Shown in pieces: positions 3,462 through 55,569 of a stretch of 64,000 nt of DNA. The DNA lies in contig CACEAP010000005.1 in NCBI GenBank assembly GCA_902557645.1, positions 10,181 to 74,180 on the forward strand, given 5' to 3'. Each line of letters starts with the position of its first letter. Positions within the stretch are counted from its first letter, which is position 1. Below the pieces are notes generated by a model. That model had not been told where the DNA came from. It did no database searches and saw only the letters and a list, made by a program, of their open reading frames with translations. The position numbers and the translations under genes were made by a program. This DNA is from an uncultured SAR86 cluster bacterium. GTDB taxonomy: Bacteria; Pseudomonadota; Gammaproteobacteria; Magnimaribacterales; D2472.

Positions 3462-6452
3462 ATGAATAGAATACAATTATCTTTGCTATTTTTATTAGCA
3501 TTCGCTTTTGCACCATTTAACGTTATTGCTGATGAACCAGTTGATGATGTTGAAGAGGTAACATCAACTGAAACAGAGTCTGATGATTCTGATGAAGATG
3601 TAACTGACGTAGGTCGTGTTACTGTTACTGGTTCAAGAATCAAAAGAATTGACATCGAGGGAGCTACTCCTGTTACTGTTATAACTAGAACTGATATCGA
3701 TCAAGCTGGTTATGGAACAGTTTTCGATGCCGTTTCTAATTTAACACAAAATATTGGTGAAACAGCTGGTGAGAATTTCCAGGCTGGTTTTACACCTGCT
3801 AACCAGGTTGTTGATCTTAGAGACTTTGGTCCAGGTAGAACACTTGTTTTAGTGAATGGAAAAAGAATGGCAGATTATCCGTTTCCTTATAACGGTAATT
3901 CAGCTTCGTTCAACTGGGCATCTATTCCCCTTGCAGCAGTTGAAAGAATTGAAGTCTTAACAGCTGGTGCTTCATCTGTATATGGTTCAGATGCAGTTGC
4001 TGGTGTTATTAATGTTGTACTTGTTGAAGGTGTTGAACAAAGCACTGTTAGAGTAACAGCAGGTGAATATCTTCAATCAAGAGATGGATTCGGTAAAGAG
4101 TATGGAATTGAATTCACAACTGGTGGAGTTGCAGATAAGTTCTCATGGACAGTTGCTGCTGAATTTACGCACTTAGATCCATTAACTACTAAAGATCGTG
4201 ATGATTATGATGATTATGATGATGGTAAAGGTACAGATAATGATGTCCCTTGGTATGCAGCTAGAATGTACGGTGCAAATATTTATGCAACCGGTTATCA
4301 GTTCTGGGGTCCTAGTGACATGGCTGGTCCTGATGGAAATCTTATGGGATGGACATGTGCTGGTACCACAAATATCGATGGTGTTATTGAAACTACTTAC
4401 GATCAGTATTACACAACTACAAGAGTTGGTAATGCATGTATAAGAGAAGAGAATCCACCTCAAACTATTTGGAATGAAAGAGACAATGCTTCAGTATTCT
4501 TTGCTGGTTCATATACTGTTTCAGAGCAAATGGAAGTTTATGCTAAAGCAATGCAGTTTAATACTGAAACAACTGGTGTTTACTTCAACAGTTTTTATTA
4601 TCCTTTCCCTGGAACTCCATGGTCAATGGGTTATTCAAATTACGGCCCACAAGGCACCGGTCTTCCAAACCCAGTAACAGGCGGAACGCTTTACATGATG
4701 GATTGGTATGGAGTTAAAATGTTTAATCCACCAACATGGGATAATTCATTTGAAGAGCAGTCTAATACTTTTGATTTAGGTGTTAGAGGTACTCTTAATA
4801 ATGGTTGGGAATATGACGTTTCAGCAACTATTAATGACTATGAATCAGACTCAGTTGGTCAATTATGGTTAGTTGAAGAAATGGAAGCATTATATTTCAA
4901 CATTGGTCAAAATGATGCGCTAGGTAATCCTTGTGTAATGGATGCATTTGATCTTTATGCTGATGGTTACTGGAGTGGTGTAGGCGGAGACGCAACTGAC
5001 CCATACAGAGGTTATTCATATGCATACAGCTGGGGCCAGCCTACATGTTTAAATGCAGAATGGTTCTATAACGGGGCTGACTTTAATTATGCAGATTATA
5101 TGGCTACTAATGATGAGCACGCTGAATCTTATTCAGATTTTTATACAGCTTCATTAGTTGGTGAATTCGGTATGTTAGATGGTGGTCCAATAGGATTCGC
5201 TCTTGTTGCTGAATATCAAGATCATGGATATACAGTTATCCCATCAGCGCTTAATGTAGCTGGTAAGTTATGGGGTTCAGGATATACAGATGGTGGCGGT
5301 GAAAGAGATAGATACGCTTTTGGTGGAGAATTAAGATTCCCAATAACAACTGAATTTGCTATTTCACTATCTGCTCGTAATGATAAGTATGATGATAAAG
5401 CTGTAAATGTTGATAGAACAACAATTGGTGGTAACTTTGAATGGAGACCATCTGATGACTTTATGTTAAGAGGTTCATGGTCTGAATCATTCAGAGCTCC
5501 AGATATGCAAAGAGCATTCTTGGAAAGAGTCGAAGGCTTTACAAGCGGTATTGACTATTATCAGTGTTGGTTATCAACAGGAGCTATCGATAATTGTGGT
5601 GATTTTAATAAAATTAACATTGTAACTATCACTGAAGGTAACAAAAGTCTTAAAGATGAGGCTGGTGATTCATATTCATTAGGTTTTGTATGGGAGCCTG
5701 CAGAAAGATTAACTCTTACTGTTGATGCATATAAAGTTGTTTTACAAGATATTGTTTCTAACAGTAGTTTAGGTCAGGTCAGAATCGATGAAGCTTATTG
5801 TAGAGCTCAAGAAGCTGGCACGCCTATTGACGGAGCTCCAGAATATAGTAGCTCATACTGTCAACAAGTTTATGACAGTATTGTTCGTGGCGGTAAACCA
5901 ACAGGTGTTGAACCAACTGATCCAACTGCTATACCAGGAATGATTGAGCTTTATAATCAACCTTTGAATATAGCTTCTCAGGAATATCAAGGTCTTGACT
6001 GGTCTATGAGATATACATTAATAACTGATACTAGAGGTGACTTTAGCTTCTCAGTTAGAGGATCAAATCAATTAAATCTTAAACAAGCAACCTTACCTGG
6101 TGAGCCAAGATTTAGTTATATGGATTCAGCATATGTAGTTAGATCTAGACAAGTTGCAACTTCAGCATGGAGTTTAAATGACTGGTCAGCTTCAATTTCT
6201 GTAAGCAGAATAGGTCATGTTAACTATATCGAAGATACTAAAGGAAGCCCTTATTTCTCAACAAACTTAACGGTTGGTTATGACATATCTGATGATATGT
6301 ATATAGCAATTGTTGGAAATAATATTTTTGATGCATTCCCTGATAGAGATGCAGCATATGGTGGAAGTTCATACTATCCTTTCCATGTAAATGCTAATTT
6401 GTATCCTATTACTGGACCATCAATTAATGGTATTTTCCAGTTTAGATTTTAA
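3462..6452 (+). CDS. TonB-dependent outer-membrane receptor
   Basis: ATG 3462 is preceded by GGGGA and starts a signal peptide (MNRIQLSLLFLLAFAFAPFNVIADE). Plug motifs are present (VTVTGSRIKR, LVNGKRM, IERIEVLTAGASSVYGSDAVAGVINVV), followed by a long beta-barrel ending in FQFRF. The ORF-track TTG start at 3369 looks like an upstream extension. Confidence 0.9.
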   Translation: MNRIQLSLLFLLAFAFAPFNVIADEPVDDVEEVTSTETESDDSDEDVTDVGRVTVTGSRIKRIDIEGATPVTVITRTDIDQAGYGTVFDAVSNLTQNIGETAGENFQAGFTPANQVVDLRDFGPGRTLVLVNGKRMADYPFPYNGNSASFNWASIPLAAVERIEVLTAGASSVYGSDAVAGVINVVLVEGVEQSTVRVTAGEYLQSRDGFGKEYGIEFTTGGVADKFSWTVAAEFTHLDPLTTKDRDDYDDYDDGKGTDNDVPWYAARMYGANIYATGYQFWGPSDMAGPDGNLMGWTCAGTTNIDGVIETTYDQYYTTTRVGNACIREENPPQTIWNERDNASVFFAGSYTVSEQMEVYAKAMQFNTETTGVYFNSFYYPFPGTPWSMGYSNYGPQGTGLPNPVTGGTLYMMDWYGVKMFNPPTWDNSFEEQSNTFDLGVRGTLNNGWEYDVSATINDYESDSVGQLWLVEEMEALYFNIGQNDALGNPCVMDAFDLYADGYWSGVGGDATDPYRGYSYAYSWGQPTCLNAEWFYNGADFNYADYMATNDEHAESYSDFYTASLVGEFGMLDGGPIGFALVAEYQDHGYTVIPSALNVAGKLWGSGYTDGGGERDRYAFGGELRFPITTEFAISLSARNDKYDDKAVNVDRTTIGGNFEWRPSDDFMLRGSWSESFRAPDMQRAFLERVEGFTSGIDYYQCWLSTGAIDNCGDFNKINIVTITEGNKSLKDEAGDSYSLGFVWEPAERLTLTVDAYKVVLQDIVSNSSLGQVRIDEAYCRAQEAGTPIDGAPEYSSSYCQQVYDSIVRGGKPTGVEPTDPTAIPGMIELYNQPLNIASQEYQGLDWSMRYTLITDTRGDFSFSVRGSNQLNLKQATLPGEPRFSYMDSAYVVRSRQVATSAWSLNDWSASISVSRIGHVNYIEDTKGSPYFSTNLTVGYDISDDMYIAIVGNNIFDAFPDRDAAYGGSSYYPFHVNANLYPITGPSINGIFQFRF

Positions 6453-6544: not shown

Positions 6545-7324
6545 ATGAAAATCATTAAAACATTTTTACCTTTAACCTTTATTTTTATAATAAGCATTAA
6601 TGCTCAAGAATCTACAAATTCTATTGATGAGTTAAATGAATCAGTAGGAACAAGTACAAAATCATTAAAAGATTCTGCTGCTAATCAAAAAAATATTAAT
6701 ACAATTGACAGACAAACTAGAGAACTAGAGTTTGACTATAAAGATACTTATAAAGAGTATGAAAATTTAAAACTCTACAACGATCAACTGCAAAAAATTA
6801 TAAATTCACAAAACGAAGAGATTGAGTCGATTATTTTTCAAATTGCTGAATTAGATAATACTAATATAAATATTATTCCTTTAATGTTAAAAATGACTGC
6901 TGCCCTTGAGCAATTTATTTCTTTAGACATTCCTTTTTTATTAGAAGAGAGAACTTCAAGAATAGAAAACATAAAGGAAGTTATGGATAGAGGTGATGTC
7001 TCTACCTCAGAAAAATTTAGAAAAGTCGCTGAAGCTTATCAAGTTGAGAATGACTACGGTAGAACTATCGAAGCTTACAGAGGTTCAGTAAACTTCGAAG
7101 ATAAAGAATTTAATGCTGACTTCTTAAGAGTTGGAAGAGTAGCATTAATGTTTATAACCACTAATGGTGACAAAGCTGCCTATTGGGATAATTCCTCAAA
7201 GTCTTGGGTTAAGTCATCAGGAGCGATCAAGAGATCTACTGAAGAGGGTTTAAAAATTGCTTTAAAACAAGCACCACCTGCACTAATTAATATTCCGGTA
7301 ACAGCTTATGAAAAGAATAATTAA
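6545..7324 (+). CDS. DUF3450-type periplasmic coiled-coil protein (TtpB-like, TonB2-system associated)
   Basis: 259 aa with a signal peptide and a coiled-coil-rich sequence. It is the first gene of a TtpB-TtpC-ExbB-ExbD-TonB-TtpD-type arrangement known from Vibrio TonB2/TonB3 clusters. Confidence 0.65.
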   Translation: MKIIKTFLPLTFIFIISINAQESTNSIDELNESVGTSTKSLKDSAANQKNINTIDRQTRELEFDYKDTYKEYENLKLYNDQLQKIINSQNEEIESIIFQIAELDNTNINIIPLMLKMTAALEQFISLDIPFLLEERTSRIENIKEVMDRGDVSTSEKFRKVAEAYQVENDYGRTIEAYRGSVNFEDKEFNADFLRVGRVALMFITTNGDKAAYWDNSSKSWVKSSGAIKRSTEEGLKIALKQAPPALINIPVTAYEKNN

Positions 7325-17928: not shown

Positions 17929-18237
17929 ATGAAACCCAATAACATTAAATCAAAGATTATGGATAAATTAAATACTGTATTTAATCCATCTTTTATAGAT
18001 CTTATAAATGAAAGTCATATGCATAATGTTCCTGAAAATTCTGAAACACATTTTAAATTAATCATTGTTTCAGATTTATTTAAAGATTTATCATTAGTTA
18101 AAAGACATAAAAAAGTTTTTGAATCATTAGGAGTAACTATGGATAAGATTCATGCTTTATCTATGTCCACATATGACTTAAATGAGTATGAATCAAATCC
18201 AAAAATTATTGATAGCCCTGAATGTGCAAATAAGTAA
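17929..18237 (+). CDS. bolA: BolA-family protein
   Basis: 102 aa with the BolA signature region (INESHMHNVPENSETHFKLIIVSDLFKDLSLVKRHK...IHALS). Confidence 0.8.
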   Translation: MKPNNIKSKIMDKLNTVFNPSFIDLINESHMHNVPENSETHFKLIIVSDLFKDLSLVKRHKKVFESLGVTMDKIHALSMSTYDLNEYESNPKIIDSPECANK

Positions 18238-29973: not shown

Positions 29974-30062
29974 GGAGAGGTGTCAGAGTGGTCTATTGTG
30001 CAACCTTGGAAAGGTTGTGTTCCTTTGCGGAACCCCGAGTTCGAATCTCGGTCTCTCCGCCA
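29974..30062 (+). tRNA. tRNA-Ser (anticodon GGA)
   Basis: Cloverleaf folded by hand. The acceptor is GGAGAGG/TCTCTCC plus an encoded CCA. The anticodon stem CAACC/GGTTG carries the loop TTGGAAA. There is a long variable arm and a T-arm CCGAG-TTCGAAT-CTCGG. The sequence is close to E. coli tRNA-Ser(GGA). Confidence 0.9.
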
Positions 30063-30123
30063 TTTATGTTTATTTTTCATATATATATTGCTAATATATA
30101 TATGTTTTATACTTACAGTTATT

Positions 30124-30411
30124 ATGAAATCATTTAAAGAAGACTTAATGGAAGCTATTGCATTAGTTTCCAATATTGAGCATCAGCTCAAGATAAATAC
30201 TCTTAATGGAAATGAGAAAACAGTCTTTTACTCTATCCTTTTAAAGGAAAAAGAAAATACGGAATGTATTATTTCTGACGTTATTAATATTTCAAAATTA
30301 TCTAGGTCAACTGTTTTTAAGACATTAAAAAAGCTTGAAGATCTTCAATTAATTTTATCTAAACAATCTACTTCTGATAAAAGAGAGCTGGTAATATCTG
30401 TTAACGTATAA
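30124..30411 (+). CDS. Small winged-helix (MarR-like) DNA-binding protein
   Basis: 95 aa from ATG 30124. The HTH-like segment is ISDVINISKLSRSTVFKTLKKLEDLQLI. The upstream part of the ORF-track frame runs through the tRNA and is discarded. Confidence 0.55.
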   Translation: MKSFKEDLMEAIALVSNIEHQLKINTLNGNEKTVFYSILLKEKENTECIISDVINISKLSRSTVFKTLKKLEDLQLILSKQSTSDKRELVISVNV

Positions 30412-31050: not shown

Positions 31051-31461
31051 ATGAATCCGTTTCATCTTGCTATACCCGTAAATAATTTAAAAACATCAAC
31101 TAGCTTTTATCAAGACATTCTTGGATGCACTAAAGGCAGATCATCATCAAAGTGGGTAGATTTTAATTTTTATGGTCATCAGTTAGTTTGTCATCAAACT
31201 GATGATGCAAAGACCAAGAGCTTTAATCCTGTTGATGGTGAGGAAGTGCCAGTACCGCATTTTGGGATCATTCTAAACTGGAATGAATTCGATCAACTAA
31301 GTAAATCATTAGTAGATAAAAATATTAATTTTATTATTAAACCTACTATACGTTTTGCAGGTAAAACTGGCGAACAAGCAATCATGTTTTTAAAAGACCC
31401 CTCAGATAATGCTATTGAGTTTAAAGCCTTTAAGAATAAAGAAGATATATTTAAAAAATAG
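31051..31461 (+). CDS. VOC-family (glyoxalase/bleomycin-resistance/dioxygenase fold) protein
   Basis: 136 aa. The N-terminal FHLAIPVNNLKTSTSFYQDILGC is typical of VOC beta-alpha-beta-beta-beta modules. Confidence 0.7.
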   Translation: MNPFHLAIPVNNLKTSTSFYQDILGCTKGRSSSKWVDFNFYGHQLVCHQTDDAKTKSFNPVDGEEVPVPHFGIILNWNEFDQLSKSLVDKNINFIIKPTIRFAGKTGEQAIMFLKDPSDNAIEFKAFKNKEDIFKK

Positions 31462-31471
31462 GAGAATTAAA

Positions 31472-32002
31472 ATGATTAAACCTAGAAGAATTGTTACAGG
31501 TAATGATAAAAATGGCGAATCAGAAATTAAAATCAATTCTATAATCGAACCAGATATTATTAATGGCGACAACATATTTTTAGAACTATGGAATACCGAT
31601 GGCAATGTTATTGATAATACAGACTCTATTGATAGAACGGATGGACCAGTTATATTATCTCCACCAGCTAACGGATCTAAAATCAGATACTTTAGTATAG
31701 CTCCTCAAGATCCATCTATATCAACAGAAGCGTTAGAAGAAATGTTTGCATTAGGATTTAAGGCTATAGGCGCTGAACACGAAAGAATTAATACACACAA
31801 ACACCCTGGAATGCATGTAACAAAATCCATTGATTACATTATCCTTATTAGTGGAAATGCAACTTTGACTTTAGATAACGAAGAAGTTTTACTACAGACA
31901 GGCGATATTGTTATTCAAAGAGGCACCAATCATGCCTGGACTGCAAATGGAGATACGCCAGCATTGTTCATAGCGGTGCTTATAGATTCTAAATTTAATT
32001 AA
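31472..32002 (+). CDS. Cupin-domain protein
   Basis: 176 aa from ATG 31472, preceded by AGGAG. The C-terminal cupin motif region is HPGMHVTKSIDYIILISG...GDIVIQRGTNHAW. Confidence 0.65.
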   Translation: MIKPRRIVTGNDKNGESEIKINSIIEPDIINGDNIFLELWNTDGNVIDNTDSIDRTDGPVILSPPANGSKIRYFSIAPQDPSISTEALEEMFALGFKAIGAEHERINTHKHPGMHVTKSIDYIILISGNATLTLDNEEVLLQTGDIVIQRGTNHAWTANGDTPALFIAVLIDSKFN

Positions 32003-32004
32003 AC

Positions 32005-32033
32005 TTGACTACTGTATATTTATACAGTATATT
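32005..32033 (+). promoter_or_regulatory. Sigma70-like promoter TTGACT-17 nt-TATATT
   Basis: The hexamers are read directly at 32005-32010 and 32028-32033. The -10 ends 7 nt before ATG 32041. Confidence 0.55.
32010..32029. promoter_or_regulatory. LexA (SOS) box, gammaproteobacterial type
   Basis: TACTGTATATTTATACAGTA matches the consensus TACTG(TA)5CAGTA at 19 of 20 positions, and the CTGT-N8-ACAG core is intact. Confidence 0.65.
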
Positions 32034-32040
32034 AATATTT

Positions 32041-32274
32041 ATGAATAATTTAATACACTTAAAACACGCTGATCCTATTATTGACCAGTGGACAAATGCT
32101 TTAGATAAAGATGCAGCATATAAGACAATTGCTTTTAAATTTTTTGGTGGTGATTCTGACAAACTAGATATTTATCTTGATAAATTTGGAGAATCACTTA
32201 CAAATATAAAAGTTAAAGTTAACGATATGGCAAATACTGAGGTAAGAGAATATAGACAATTAGCAATGTTTTAA
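32041..32274 (+). CDS. Hypothetical 77-aa hydrophilic protein, candidate SOS-regulated
   Basis: In-frame ATG inside ORF 32005..32274, immediately downstream of the promoter and LexA box. No recognisable family. Confidence 0.5.
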   Translation: MNNLIHLKHADPIIDQWTNALDKDAAYKTIAFKFFGGDSDKLDIYLDKFGESLTNIKVKVNDMANTEVREYRQLAMF

Positions 32275-33686
32275 ATAATTGCTTTAATTTCTAAGTATTC
32301 TTCTAACCCGTATTTACCGTGTTCTCTTCCATTTCCTGATAGCTTAAATCCACCAAAGGGTGCTGGAACTGAACCTCTGCCTATCTTATTAATTATAGAC
32401 TGACCTGAATGAATTCTTTTAGCAATATTATACCCATCATCATAGTCTAGACATGTAATATAGTTAGATAAACCATATTTTGAATTGTTTGCAATATCTA
32501 TAGCATTATCAATACTAGAATAGCTAATAATTGATAAAACTGGTCCAAATATTTCTTCTTGCGCGATAGTTGCAGAATTATCAACATTAATAAAGACAGT
32601 TGGTCTTATAAAATAACCACTATTGCAATTATCAGGATTTCCAAGTCCTCCAGTTACAATTTCATAACCTTCATCTATACCACTTTTGATAAATTCTTGA
32701 ATAGTATTATATTGTTTTTTGTTAACAACCGGTCCATGTGTGGTATTTTCATTATTTGGATCATTAAATATCAATGTTTTTATATGATTAACAATAATAT
32801 TTTTAATATTATTAATAGAAACCTCTGGAATCAATAATCTAGTTGGCGCTGAGCATGATTGCCCAGAATTAATAAAACATTGATTTATTGCATTTGGAAT
32901 AACAGCATTTAGATCAACACCTTCACAAACTATATGTGCAGATTTCCCACCAAGCTCTAATGAAACTCTTTTTACTGTTTTCGCTGCTTTTTCTTGGATA
33001 TCAATACCTGCAATTGTAGAACCTGTAAATGAAATCATTTTAATATCTGGGTGAGTTGAAATAATTGGGCCTATTTCAGAACCAATTCCATTAATACAAT
33101 TAAAACAACCTTTCGGTAAAGCTGAGTTATCAATTACATCTATAAGCAATCTACTGCTAACAGGTGAATATTCACTAGGTTTAAGAATTATAGGGCAGCC
33201 AGCTGCTATAGCTGATGCAATTTTAGTTAATGTTTGATTGAGCGGCCAATTCCATGGAGTTATTAAGGCAGATACACCAATTGGCATTTTAAAAACCTTA
33301 TAGCCATCATACTTTTCTTCAAACTTATATTTTTTAAGCTCACTAATAGTATTAATTAAATGATCTGTTCCCATTTGAATATGCGCATTGCTGGTTAAGG
33401 TAATTGGCGCTCCCATTTCAAGGGTCATAGCTTCAGCAAATTCTTTTCTTCTTACTTCTATTTGATCATTTATAGACTGTAAAACATCAATTCTTTTAAC
33501 AATACTTATATTAGCTGCAACTTTTTCATTTTCTTTAGCTGATTTAACAGCTTGATTTACTTGATCAACTGATGAGCATAGAAGAGTTCCATATTGATTC
33601 TCATTAGCAGGATTAATTAAATTAAAATTAATACCAGTTGGTTCATCAATTAAGTTACCAGCAATATAGGTGTTTGAAATTTTCAT
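32271..33686 (-). CDS. NAD(P)+-dependent aldehyde dehydrogenase
   Basis: 471 aa with the catalytic Glu motif LELGGKSA and the Cys motif FINSGQSCSAPTR. Confidence 0.9.
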   Translation of the reverse strand: MKISNTYIAGNLIDEPTGINFNLINPANENQYGTLLCSSVDQVNQAVKSAKENEKVAANISIVKRIDVLQSINDQIEVRRKEFAEAMTLEMGAPITLTSNAHIQMGTDHLINTISELKKYKFEEKYDGYKVFKMPIGVSALITPWNWPLNQTLTKIASAIAAGCPIILKPSEYSPVSSRLLIDVIDNSALPKGCFNCINGIGSEIGPIISTHPDIKMISFTGSTIAGIDIQEKAAKTVKRVSLELGGKSAHIVCEGVDLNAVIPNAINQCFINSGQSCSAPTRLLIPEVSINNIKNIIVNHIKTLIFNDPNNENTTHGPVVNKKQYNTIQEFIKSGIDEGYEIVTGGLGNPDNCNSGYFIRPTVFINVDNSATIAQEEIFGPVLSIISYSSIDNAIDIANNSKYGLSNYITCLDYDDGYNIAKRIHSGQSIINKIGRGSVPAPFGGFKLSGNGREHGKYGLEEYLEIKAII

Positions 33687-54372: not shown

Positions 54373-55569
54373 ATGATTAGGCTTTCTAATAAAAAAATAC
54401 TGTTATGCATAACAGGCGGAATTGCTGCATATAAAACTCCTGAATTAACAAGGATTTTTAAAAAGAATGGTGCTGATGTTCGTATTATTATGACTGAGTC
54501 TTCAAAAGAATTTGTTGCACCATTAAGTCTTCAAGCAGTTTCTGGAAATCAAATTCATTATTCTCTCATTGATGAAGAGGCTGAGCTTGGTATGGGTCAT
54601 ATCGAATTAGCTAAATGGGCTGATGTTATATTAATTGCTCCTTGTACTGCAGAATCTATCTCAAGATTATCCCAAGGTAGAGCTAATGATCTAATGAGCG
54701 CAGTTATCTTGGCATCAGATGCTGATCTTTTTATAGCTCCAGCTATGAATGTTAAGATGTGGGGTGACAAGGTTACACAAAAAAATGTTAAAACTCTTAA
54801 AATAAAAAATGTAAACTTTATCGGGCCTGATAGTGGTGATCAGGCATGTGGTGATGTTGGTGAAGGAAGAATGTCGGAGCCACAAGATATAGCTTTTGCT
54901 ATAGCTAAGTCATTTTCATCATCTTATTTAAATGGCATGAGAATTTTAATTACAGCCGGACCAACAAAAGAAGCAATAGACCCTGTTAGATATTTAACAA
55001 ATAATAGTTCAGGGAAGATGGGTTATGCACTTGCTGAGTCAGCATTTTTAGCAGGGGCACAAGTAGATTTAGTTAGCGGACCAGTAAGTATAAATGCTTA
55101 TGAAGGCGTAAACTTGCACAAAATAAATAGTGCTGATGAGATGCTTGAAAAGATAAAAACTTTAATTAATGGTATAGATATATTTATAGGTTGTGCAGCT
55201 GTTGCAGACTTTAAACCTACCAACTATATTGATTCTAAAATTAAGAAAACTGATGAAAATAATATGTCTATTAATTTAACAAAGAACCCTGATATTCTTA
55301 AATATGCATCTGAAAACATGAAAGATAAAATTGTAATTGGTTTTAGTGCTGAAACAGATAATATTATTGAAAATGCTCGATTAAAATTATCTAAAAAAGA
55401 TTTAGATATGATTATTTGTAATGACGTTTCTGATTCAAGTATTGGATTTGATTCAGATAATAATGAAGTTCATATAATTACTAAAGATTATGAAAAAAAA
55501 CTTCATAAAAAATCAAAAATTAGAATTGCAAAAGAGATTTTAAAAAATATTGAACCATTAATTAATTAA
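54373..55569 (+). CDS. coaBC: Bifunctional phosphopantothenoylcysteine decarboxylase / phosphopantothenate-cysteine ligase
   Basis: 398 aa. The N-terminal flavoprotein domain begins KILLCITGGIAAYK. The C-terminal ligase domain carries ITAGPTKEAIDPVRYLTNNSSGKMG. Confidence 0.9.
   Translation: MIRLSNKKILLCITGGIAAYKTPELTRIFKKNGADVRIIMTESSKEFVAPLSLQAVSGNQIHYSLIDEEAELGMGHIELAKWADVILIAPCTAESISRLSQGRANDLMSAVILASDADLFIAPAMNVKMWGDKVTQKNVKTLKIKNVNFIGPDSGDQACGDVGEGRMSEPQDIAFAIAKSFSSSYLNGMRILITAGPTKEAIDPVRYLTNNSSGKMGYALAESAFLAGAQVDLVSGPVSINAYEGVNLHKINSADEMLEKIKTLINGIDIFIGCAAVADFKPTNYIDSKIKKTDENNMSINLTKNPDILKYASENMKDKIVIGFSAETDNIIENARLKLSKKDLDMIICNDVSDSSIGFDSDNNEVHIITKDYEKKLHKKSKIRIAKEILKNIEPLIN

Follow-up and report, generated by a model that had tools for sequence, protein, structure and literature searches.

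A 64,000-nucleotide (nt) stretch of DNA from an uncultured SAR86 cluster bacterium (contig CACEAP010000005.1, positions 10,181 to 74,180; the whole stretch is referred to below as the window) carries a small gene, encoding 77 amino acids (aa), in whose promoter a near-consensus LexA-type operator fills the spacer between the −35 and −10 hexamers. This operator is present upstream of the gene in every SAR86 species genome in which it could be evaluated, and the gene itself belongs to a SAR86-wide family of proteins with a predicted three-helix domain, a variable linker and a conserved C-terminal tail resembling the motifs through which DNA polymerases (Pol) engage the β sliding clamp (DnaN). 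LexA very probably binds the box; the wider proposal, that SAR86 has here a stand-alone SOS gene, repressed by LexA and transcribed without a leader, and that the sliding clamp is where its product docks, is regarded as evenly balanced.

A LexA-type operator fills the spacer of the promoter

Promoter, operator and start codon (the sequence across all three being cTTGACTACTGTATATTTATACAGTATATTaatatttATG) were located at exactly the positions assigned to them in a preliminary description of this DNA, which had been made from the sequence without database searches:

32005–32010, plus strand: −35 hexamer TTGACT, called by promoter scan; the operator begins with its last base
32010–32029, no strand assigned: LexA-type operator TACTGTATATTTATACAGTA, with its CTGT-N8-ACAG core at 32012–32027, filling the 17-nt spacer
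32028–32033, plus strand: −10 hexamer TATATT, overlapping the last two bases of the operator
32040–32041, plus strand: predicted transcription start, at the A of the ATG or 1 nt before it, from the promoter geometry
32041–32274, plus strand: coding sequence of 77 aa and stop (32272–32274), member of a SAR86-specific family

The single central mismatch claimed for the operator was likewise found, 19 of 20 positions agreeing with the gammaproteobacterial consensus TACTG(TA)5CAGTA, and occupation of the spacer by the box was borne out independently by a promoter scan, in which TTGACT-17-TATATT was the best promoter of the region (10/12 matches). A search of the 64-kb window with the 20-mer SOS consensus, allowing up to three mismatches, returned this one match, against an expectation of 0.01. 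Scoring of the site with a LexA position weight matrix, proposed as a check in the preliminary description, was carried out with an approximate matrix of 26 Escherichia coli operators and gave 24.7 bits, far above chance: the best training site scored 22.9 bits, the next site in the window 9.7 bits and the highest of 200 shuffles 19.1 bits. As SAR86 is a clade of Gammaproteobacteria, CTGT-N8-ACAG is the LexA motif to be expected in this lineage.

The statement that no other LexA-type box had been noticed in the 64 kb agrees with the matrix scores, all non-operator sites reaching 9.7 bits or less. A second CTGT-N8-ACAG core (TACTGTTATGCATAACAGGC, 54400–54415) is present 27 nt inside the coding sequence of coaBC (Flavoprotein + DFP). 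This second occurrence falls outside the eight best matrix scores; 0.54 matches to CTGT-N8-ACAG are expected per window, and the coaBC site is probably due to chance.

Two other accounts of the segment were considered and rejected. The palindrome is not the terminator of the upstream gene: it stays with the small gene irrespective of what precedes it, the sequence of the arms is kept without compensatory changes, and the stem would contain two G–C pairs only. An 89-aa open reading frame (ORF) with a TTG start at 32005 was also discarded, since all homologs begin at the ATG, that is, at the same methionine, and the extension represents translated operator.

A gene family spread across SAR86

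The preliminary description had presented the gene as an orphan, a view overturned by the recovery of 41 distinct full-length intact homologs (70–84 aa) from 54 SAR86 loci and 35 species genomes. The exact 77-aa protein is recorded on 265 contigs, with the UniRef source label ‘SAR86 cluster bacterium’; a word-indexed search returned six clusters with 57–99% identity, and a profile search run exhaustively over 1.84 billion representatives returned 36 proteins of 46–106 aa, many of which had been cut short through adapter or chimera artefacts. When 185,579 species genomes were scanned for the peptide KTIAFK[FY]F, 35 loci were identified, which sit, with the exception of one contig, in SAR86 genomes, metagenome-assembled genomes (MAGs), single cells or unclassified gammaproteobacterial bins. 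The exception, NYWQ01000094.1, carries a SAR86-type locus within a ‘Flavobacteriales’ MAG and is probably a case of binning contamination. The small gene is chromosomal and spread over many SAR86 species, and no match was found among IMG/VR contigs or GenBank phages.

Two database artefacts were encountered in these searches. Several of the recovered sequences (P0042, P0053, P0056, P0064, P0069 and others) end in translated adapter (..SYTHLTLPTI.., ..LIHISEPTRQP, ..CLLYTSPSPRD..), indicating that public assemblies hold adapter-chimeric contig ends that create false C-termini. The name given to the 77-aa protein in JGI/IMG, ‘ABC-type glycerol-3-phosphate transport system substrate-binding protein’, is a clear misannotation.

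The operator is conserved while the predicted promoter varies between clades

A TACTGT-N8-ACAGTA box lies 2–14 nt upstream of the ATG in all 34 evaluable SAR86 species genomes, and recurs at 13 of the 14 metagenome loci L001–L014 (the 13 for which upstream DNA is available) as well as at the divergent loci L050–L054. The preliminary description had raised the prospect that box and ORF might not be conserved in relatives; homologs keep both, down to the most divergent subfamily. The arms TACTGT and ACAGTA are invariant and the centres vary (TATATTTATA, TATAAATATA, TACATACATA, TATATATATA, TATAAACATA and TATATATGTA), with the perfect 20/20 consensus TACTGTATATATATACAGTA occurring in five SAR86 genomes. 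Within the window's clade a segment of 29 nt, TTGACTACTGTATAT..ATACAGTATATT, is invariant while flanking intergenic bases change, and this promoter–operator is identical between genomes in which 47–97% of synonymous sites differ, synonymous sites being near saturation among family loci. Invariant arms, a free centre and the lack of compensatory changes indicate a site bound by protein, not a hairpin in RNA or DNA. From clade to clade there is no constant local regulator beside the small gene, an observation in favour of a global repressor. Across 390 kb of SAR86 DNA (the window and all loci), no further CTGT[AT]N6[AT]ACAG was found except for one inside the coaBC coding sequence.

The hexamers around the box are arranged differently in different clades (the QLEFSF and QPELLH clades below are labelled by C-terminal tail). 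The −35 TTGACT is invariant across the window's clade, save for one genome with TTGACC, and the −10 TATATT is conserved there; the QLEFSF clade has TTGTAT, TTGATT or TTGACT as its −35 and a −10 that follows the box. The −10 ends 6–7 nt before the ATG in all relatives belonging to these two clades. The most divergent subfamily (30–35% identity), which was reached via metagenome contigs, shows the box in a 17-nt spacer between a TTG-type −35 (TTGTAT, TTGATT or TTGACT) and a −10 (TATAAT or TAATAT) whose end again lies 6–7 nt from the ATG. In the large QPELLH clade, a conserved TTGAC[AT] is found 17 nt upstream of a T[TA][TA]AAT hexamer that itself abuts the box (L022–L049, around locus positions 3930–4000), the hexamer 5′ of the box thus being −10-like in this clade but a −35 in the window (31975–32040) and in the QLEFSF clade. 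Several members of the QPELLH clade have AAGGA or AGG before the ATG, and the box in this clade would extend from roughly −6 to +14 of a transcript with a leader. The operator apparently stayed fixed while the promoter was rewired around it between clades.

In the window's clade the mRNA of the small gene is likely to be leaderless, because the −10 ends 6–7 nt before the ATG (7 nt before ATG 32041 in the window), and not because a Shine–Dalgarno (SD) sequence is absent. Of the two arguments for a leaderless transcript in the preliminary description, the spacing is thus upheld, and in two clades, whereas the missing SD is uninformative, SD-like sequences preceding 8 of the 41 window genes; nor does the description extend to the QPELLH clade, with its apparently leadered transcript. 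Start contexts were also inspected for SD and −10 elements elsewhere in the window (examples at 6545, 17929, 33790 and 42733), and TATAAT-like hexamers 6–7 nt before the ATG were seen at several genes, including tataatACTCAC-ATG at 17929 and tataatATCGCCC-ATG at 6545. Initiation on leaderless mRNAs or independently of an SD may thus be widespread in SAR86, although chance matches also arise at 31% G+C, the approximate composition of the window.

A small protein, predicted to be soluble, under purifying selection

The encoded protein falls into three parts:

32074–32184, plus strand: N-terminal three-helix domain, residues 12–48 (DPIIDQW...DKDAAYKTIAFKFFGGD...YL), predicted in AlphaFold2 models
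32185–32247, plus strand: variable linker, residues 49–69, predicted to be disordered (predicted local distance difference test score, pLDDT, ~48–57)
32248–32271, plus strand: conserved tail EYRQLAMF, of which QLAMF (32257–32271), with its free carboxylate, is a candidate β-clamp-binding motif

Helices were predicted at residues 12–19, 23–35 and 39–48 with pLDDT 78–87 in two agreeing AlphaFold2 runs, based on 6 and 19 sequences, respectively. The small protein is under purifying selection, with a ratio of nonsynonymous to synonymous substitution rates (dN/dS) of 0.06–0.42 over its whole length; values of 0.03–0.21 for residues 1–48 and 0.07–0.17 for residues 67–77 flank a near-neutral linker (residues 49–66, 0.14–3.6), the length and sequence of which differ between clades.

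The absence of resemblance to known SOS proteins, previously judged by eye, was sustained in Pfam, NCBIfam and PADLOC: no Pfam family was matched by the window protein at E ≤ 1 and none consistently by 19 members, nothing meaningful was returned for the family by NCBIfam or PADLOC, and there was no match to family models of DinI, YebG, SulA, SymE or TisB/DinQ. Comparison of two models with the PDB by Foldseek gave nothing below E = 3, the weak matches to GyrA being noise, and a PDB sequence profile search gave nothing below E = 0.49; the three-helix N-terminal domain, as modelled, is new. A relationship to Pol III θ (HolE; 76 aa, three helices), suggested by a common ‘AFK’ stretch, was rejected on an hhalign probability of 0.3% over 11 columns, obtained with a manually entered θ sequence.

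The product had been described as small and hydrophilic, as is indeed the case for these 77 aa without a hydrophobic segment, and also as potentially toxin-like, for which no support emerged from a protein predicted to be soluble and to contain a folded helical domain. A membrane peptide or type I toxin under SOS induction, in the manner of TisB, DinQ and SymE in E. coli, would likewise be a small gene behind a LexA box, the one feature found in favour of such an identity. It is nonetheless a most improbable one, given the hydrophilic character of the protein and the confident prediction of soluble helices, the lack of any conserved antisense or antitoxin feature and of any Rfam match in the region, and the fact that Pfam and PADLOC showed no match to SymE, to TisB or to a toxin model of any kind.

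The C-terminal tail is a candidate clamp-binding motif

A glutamine opens the tail in all 41 full-length proteins and is invariant in the 19-sequence alignment; EYRQLAMF is invariant within the window's clade, the tail peptide of the window protein being TEVREYRQLAMF. The tails of the distinct proteins are distributed as follows:

QPELLH: 19 proteins
QLAMF: 11 proteins
QPELFSENRCS: 3 proteins
QPELI: 2 proteins
QLEFSF: 2 proteins
QPELSF: 1 protein
QLELFY: 1 protein
QLEFTF: 1 protein
QLELSF: 1 protein

QLELI, QLELL and QPELMLI are further variants among database representatives. At their very end, the proteins of the family follow the consensus Q-[LP]-[EA]-[LMF]-x-[FLIHY]. A strict C-terminal pattern, Q-[LP]-x-[LMF]-(x)-[FLIYH], was matched by 38/41 family proteins and by 0/502 control ORFs from the same DNA. 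The motif follows the low-pLDDT, fast-evolving linker and forms the extreme C-terminus in 38/41; clamp clients are usually laid out in this way, with a flexible linker between folded domain and terminal motif.

Clamp-binding peptides conform to a pentameric or hexameric consensus, QL(S/D)LF, in which position 1 critically requires Gln, position 2 tolerates other residues but prefers Leu, position 3 is free, position 4 is naturally Leu or Met, and positions 5/6 are Phe, Leu or Ile (PMC11139829). Natural examples at the C-terminus include QLGLF of Pol II, QLVLGL of Pol IV and QVELEF(D) of Pol III α, the internal motif of the latter being QADMF; binding is aided by acidic flanks and by the free carboxylate at the C-terminus, which touches the clamp (PMC11139829). 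QLAMF-COOH joins the consensus Leu at position 2 with the Met-Phe of the α motif, and a hydrophobic residue at position 4 with Phe, Leu or Ile at position 5/6 is found in QLAMF, QLELF(Y), QPELF, QPELI, QLEFSF, QLELSF and QPELSF. The commonest tail, QPELLH, fits the motif as QxxLL followed by His. Its nearest parallels are MutS QMSLL and MutL QPLLIP. From this pattern we infer that the tail may bind the β sliding clamp, a proposition for which the chances appear about even.

The same tail is open to another interpretation, in which the protein is equally SOS-regulated, and supported by the same evidence for regulation, but the tail is a degron through which Lon or ClpXP clears the effector, or a dock for the τ subunit or RecA, with the three-helix domain as the active part. 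The largest clade ends in ...ELLH, which may be likened to E. coli SulA, where a C-terminal His is needed for recognition by Lon. The last residue moreover differs by clade (F, H, I or Y). The α peptide QVELEF also binds τ (PMC11139829). Against this, an invariant Gln combined with hydrophobic residues at +3 and +4/+5 is the signature of the clamp motif and is not known from any degron. A degron or alternative dock in place of a clamp motif is considered unlikely; degron and clamp motif are not mutually exclusive, and both readings are compatible.

Proposed mechanism and its assessment

In the uninduced state, a LexA-type repressor dimer on the 20-bp palindrome spanning the −35/−10 spacer would block RNA polymerase. 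DNA damage would remove the repressor, classically through RecA-stimulated self-cleavage, whereupon the derepressed promoter would fire and yield an mRNA starting at or beside the AUG. The C-terminus of the product, ...EYRQLAMF-COOH, would then insert into the hydrophobic cleft of the β clamp that is used by Pol III α and ε, Pol II and Pol IV. Occupied clamps and competition with polymerases could slow or pause replication, in the manner of a p21-like damage checkpoint; alternatively, the N-terminal domain could bring another factor to clamps at stalled forks. The most specific form of this proposal, a minimal SAR86 SOS response whose effector is a leaderless LexA-repressed ‘clamp plug’ of 70–84 residues pausing or remodelling replication after ultraviolet (UV) damage, is offered tentatively and is somewhat doubtful.

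Several observations speak against clamp docking under LexA control from a leaderless transcript. Clamp binding is supported by one line of evidence, a short linear motif, and the commonest tail, QPELLH, is less canonical in having Pro at position 2 and ending in His. Most window genes lack an SD sequence, so that its absence from the small gene gives no proof of a leaderless mRNA, and in the QPELLH clade the box apparently lies over the transcription start of a leadered mRNA, in some members with an SD (AAGGA). The neighbourhood of the gene gives no link to DNA metabolism. As regards the repressor, a tblastn search with E. coli LexA and RecA of the 390 kb of SAR86 DNA found neither lexA nor recA; metagenomes scanned for NAAEEHL, a stretch of the LexA recognition helix, as written in AT-rich codons (AATGCWGCWGAAGAACATTTA) yielded 91 lexA genes, none assignable to SAR86; and searches of papers and supplements found no discussion of LexA or SOS in SAR86. 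The metagenome lexA loci have 34–55% GC, and those looked up belong to Colwellia, Pseudoalteromonas and Haemophilus. The absence of lexA and of further boxes says little, because these 390 kb amount to less than one-third of a genome and include none of the canonical SOS genes.

The failure to find lexA in either search, together with the lack of a second SOS-type box in the 390 kb, could instead mean that the palindrome is the operator of a non-LexA regulator, SAR86 having lost lexA or employing another repressor, and that the gene lies outside any DNA-damage regulon. SAR86 genomes are streamlined (PMC3358033), and in the window's clade a MarR-type gene lies three genes upstream of the small gene. 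This MarR gene is, however, not adjacent in other clades; the perfect consensus in several genomes and the combination of invariant arms with a variable AT-rich centre constitute the LexA pattern; and the operator scores above every E. coli training site. An operator for a regulator other than LexA is accordingly thought improbable, and it is LexA that we infer, from the operator and its conservation, to be the binder. The finding of an SOS-type operator on a small gene, as first described, is supported and extended.

One by-product of the metagenome scan, not from SAR86, is a minus-strand ORF of 253 aa on ERZ651776 NODE_25571 (L117), which has the unusual architecture of a LexA-type N-terminal DNA-binding domain (..RSANAAEEHL..) without an S24 protease domain; the end of the protein looks OmpA/MotB-like by eye, and CTGT/ACAG half-sites lie upstream.

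Genomic neighbourhood

The small gene was previously placed in a cluster of small uncharacterised genes, a characterisation not retained here: its neighbours are a MarR-type gene (a weak Pfam match on an orthologue), a membrane-type protein without a significant Pfam match, a glyoxalase-fold gene, a cupin gene and the following convergent gene:

32271–33686, minus strand: aldehyde dehydrogenase gene, whose stop overlaps that of the small gene by 4 nt (32271–32274)

A scan of the region found no terminator between the small gene and the aldehyde dehydrogenase gene, and induction could send antisense transcription into the latter; this convergent arrangement is conserved only in the window's clade. 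Two upstream ORFs are overlong as called. The cupin ORF (31409–32002) has homologs of 176 aa, placing its start near 31472 and not at 31409, and the MarR-like ORF (29980–30411, 143 aa) runs over tRNA-Ser (29974–30062), the gene being 95 aa. At one metagenome locus (L001, 6960–8989) the MarR-like and membrane-protein genes occur twice in tandem, upstream of the block of glyoxalase, cupin and small genes, as a result of local duplication.

Significance

Most knowledge of SOS regulons comes from model bacteria in culture, and little is known of how streamlined sunlit-ocean lineages respond to UV damage. For SAR86, one of the most abundant bacterial groups of the surface ocean, the present analysis describes a gene that is found across the lineage, belongs to no known family and has an exceptionally conserved damage-type operator, at a locus that appears to illustrate how an operator can be held fixed while promoter hexamers are rewired between clades. 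If the proposed function is correct, the small protein would add a new class to the SOS effectors, one that occupies the clamp and is neither a polymerase nor a division inhibitor nor a toxin; it would provide a bacterial functional counterpart of the p21–PCNA checkpoint on a previously unseen three-helix domain; and its tail would be a naturally occurring peptide that binds the clamp cleft, itself a target for antibiotics. An isolate of SAR86 is now available (PMC11582366), which makes these predictions testable.

Comparison with known systems

In common with E. coli sulA, umuDC, recN, dinI, yebG and tisB, the SAR86 gene carries a 20-bp TACTGT-N8-ACAGTA palindrome over its core promoter, and it is small and stand-alone; judged with the approximate matrix, its operator equals or surpasses the strongest E. 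coli sites in quality. It differs from the E. coli SOS genes in that its protein belongs to none of their families, the box fills the whole spacer, the mRNA is apparently leaderless, and the host lineage is a streamlined, uncultured-type marine clade without a described SOS regulon. [quoted passage not shown] Unlike in the polymerases, the motif is borne by a domain of ~37 residues without an enzymatic fold, and such a protein would occupy or adapt the clamp and not synthesise DNA. A search of the literature found no SOS-induced small clamp-binding protein of this kind.

In eukaryotes, the damage-induced small protein p21 (CDKN1A) binds PCNA through a C-terminal PIP-box and restrains replication; the parallel with the SAR86 protein is one of analogy and not of homology, the clamp (PCNA or β), the motif and the regulator (p53 or LexA) all being different. 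Among bacteria, the Caulobacter toxin SocB and the UmuD2C checkpoint slow replication through the β clamp, umuDC being controlled by LexA; SocB is subject to proteolytic control and is not known to be governed by LexA, and UmuD and UmuC are much larger proteins of the S24 and Y-polymerase families. The relationship between umuDC and the clamp has been treated elsewhere (PMC4045847). Neither SocB nor UmuD2C has sequence or fold similarity to the SAR86 protein.

A further counterpart in architecture is Bacillus subtilis YnzC, a 77-aa protein of an SOS operon with a helical N-terminus and a disordered C-terminus that is not known to carry a terminal Gln-hydrophobic motif. Although neither Foldseek against the PDB nor the PDB sequence profile search revealed any similarity between the two proteins, YnzC matches the SAR86 protein in size, in the layout of a helical N-terminal and a disordered C-terminal part, and in its link to the SOS response.

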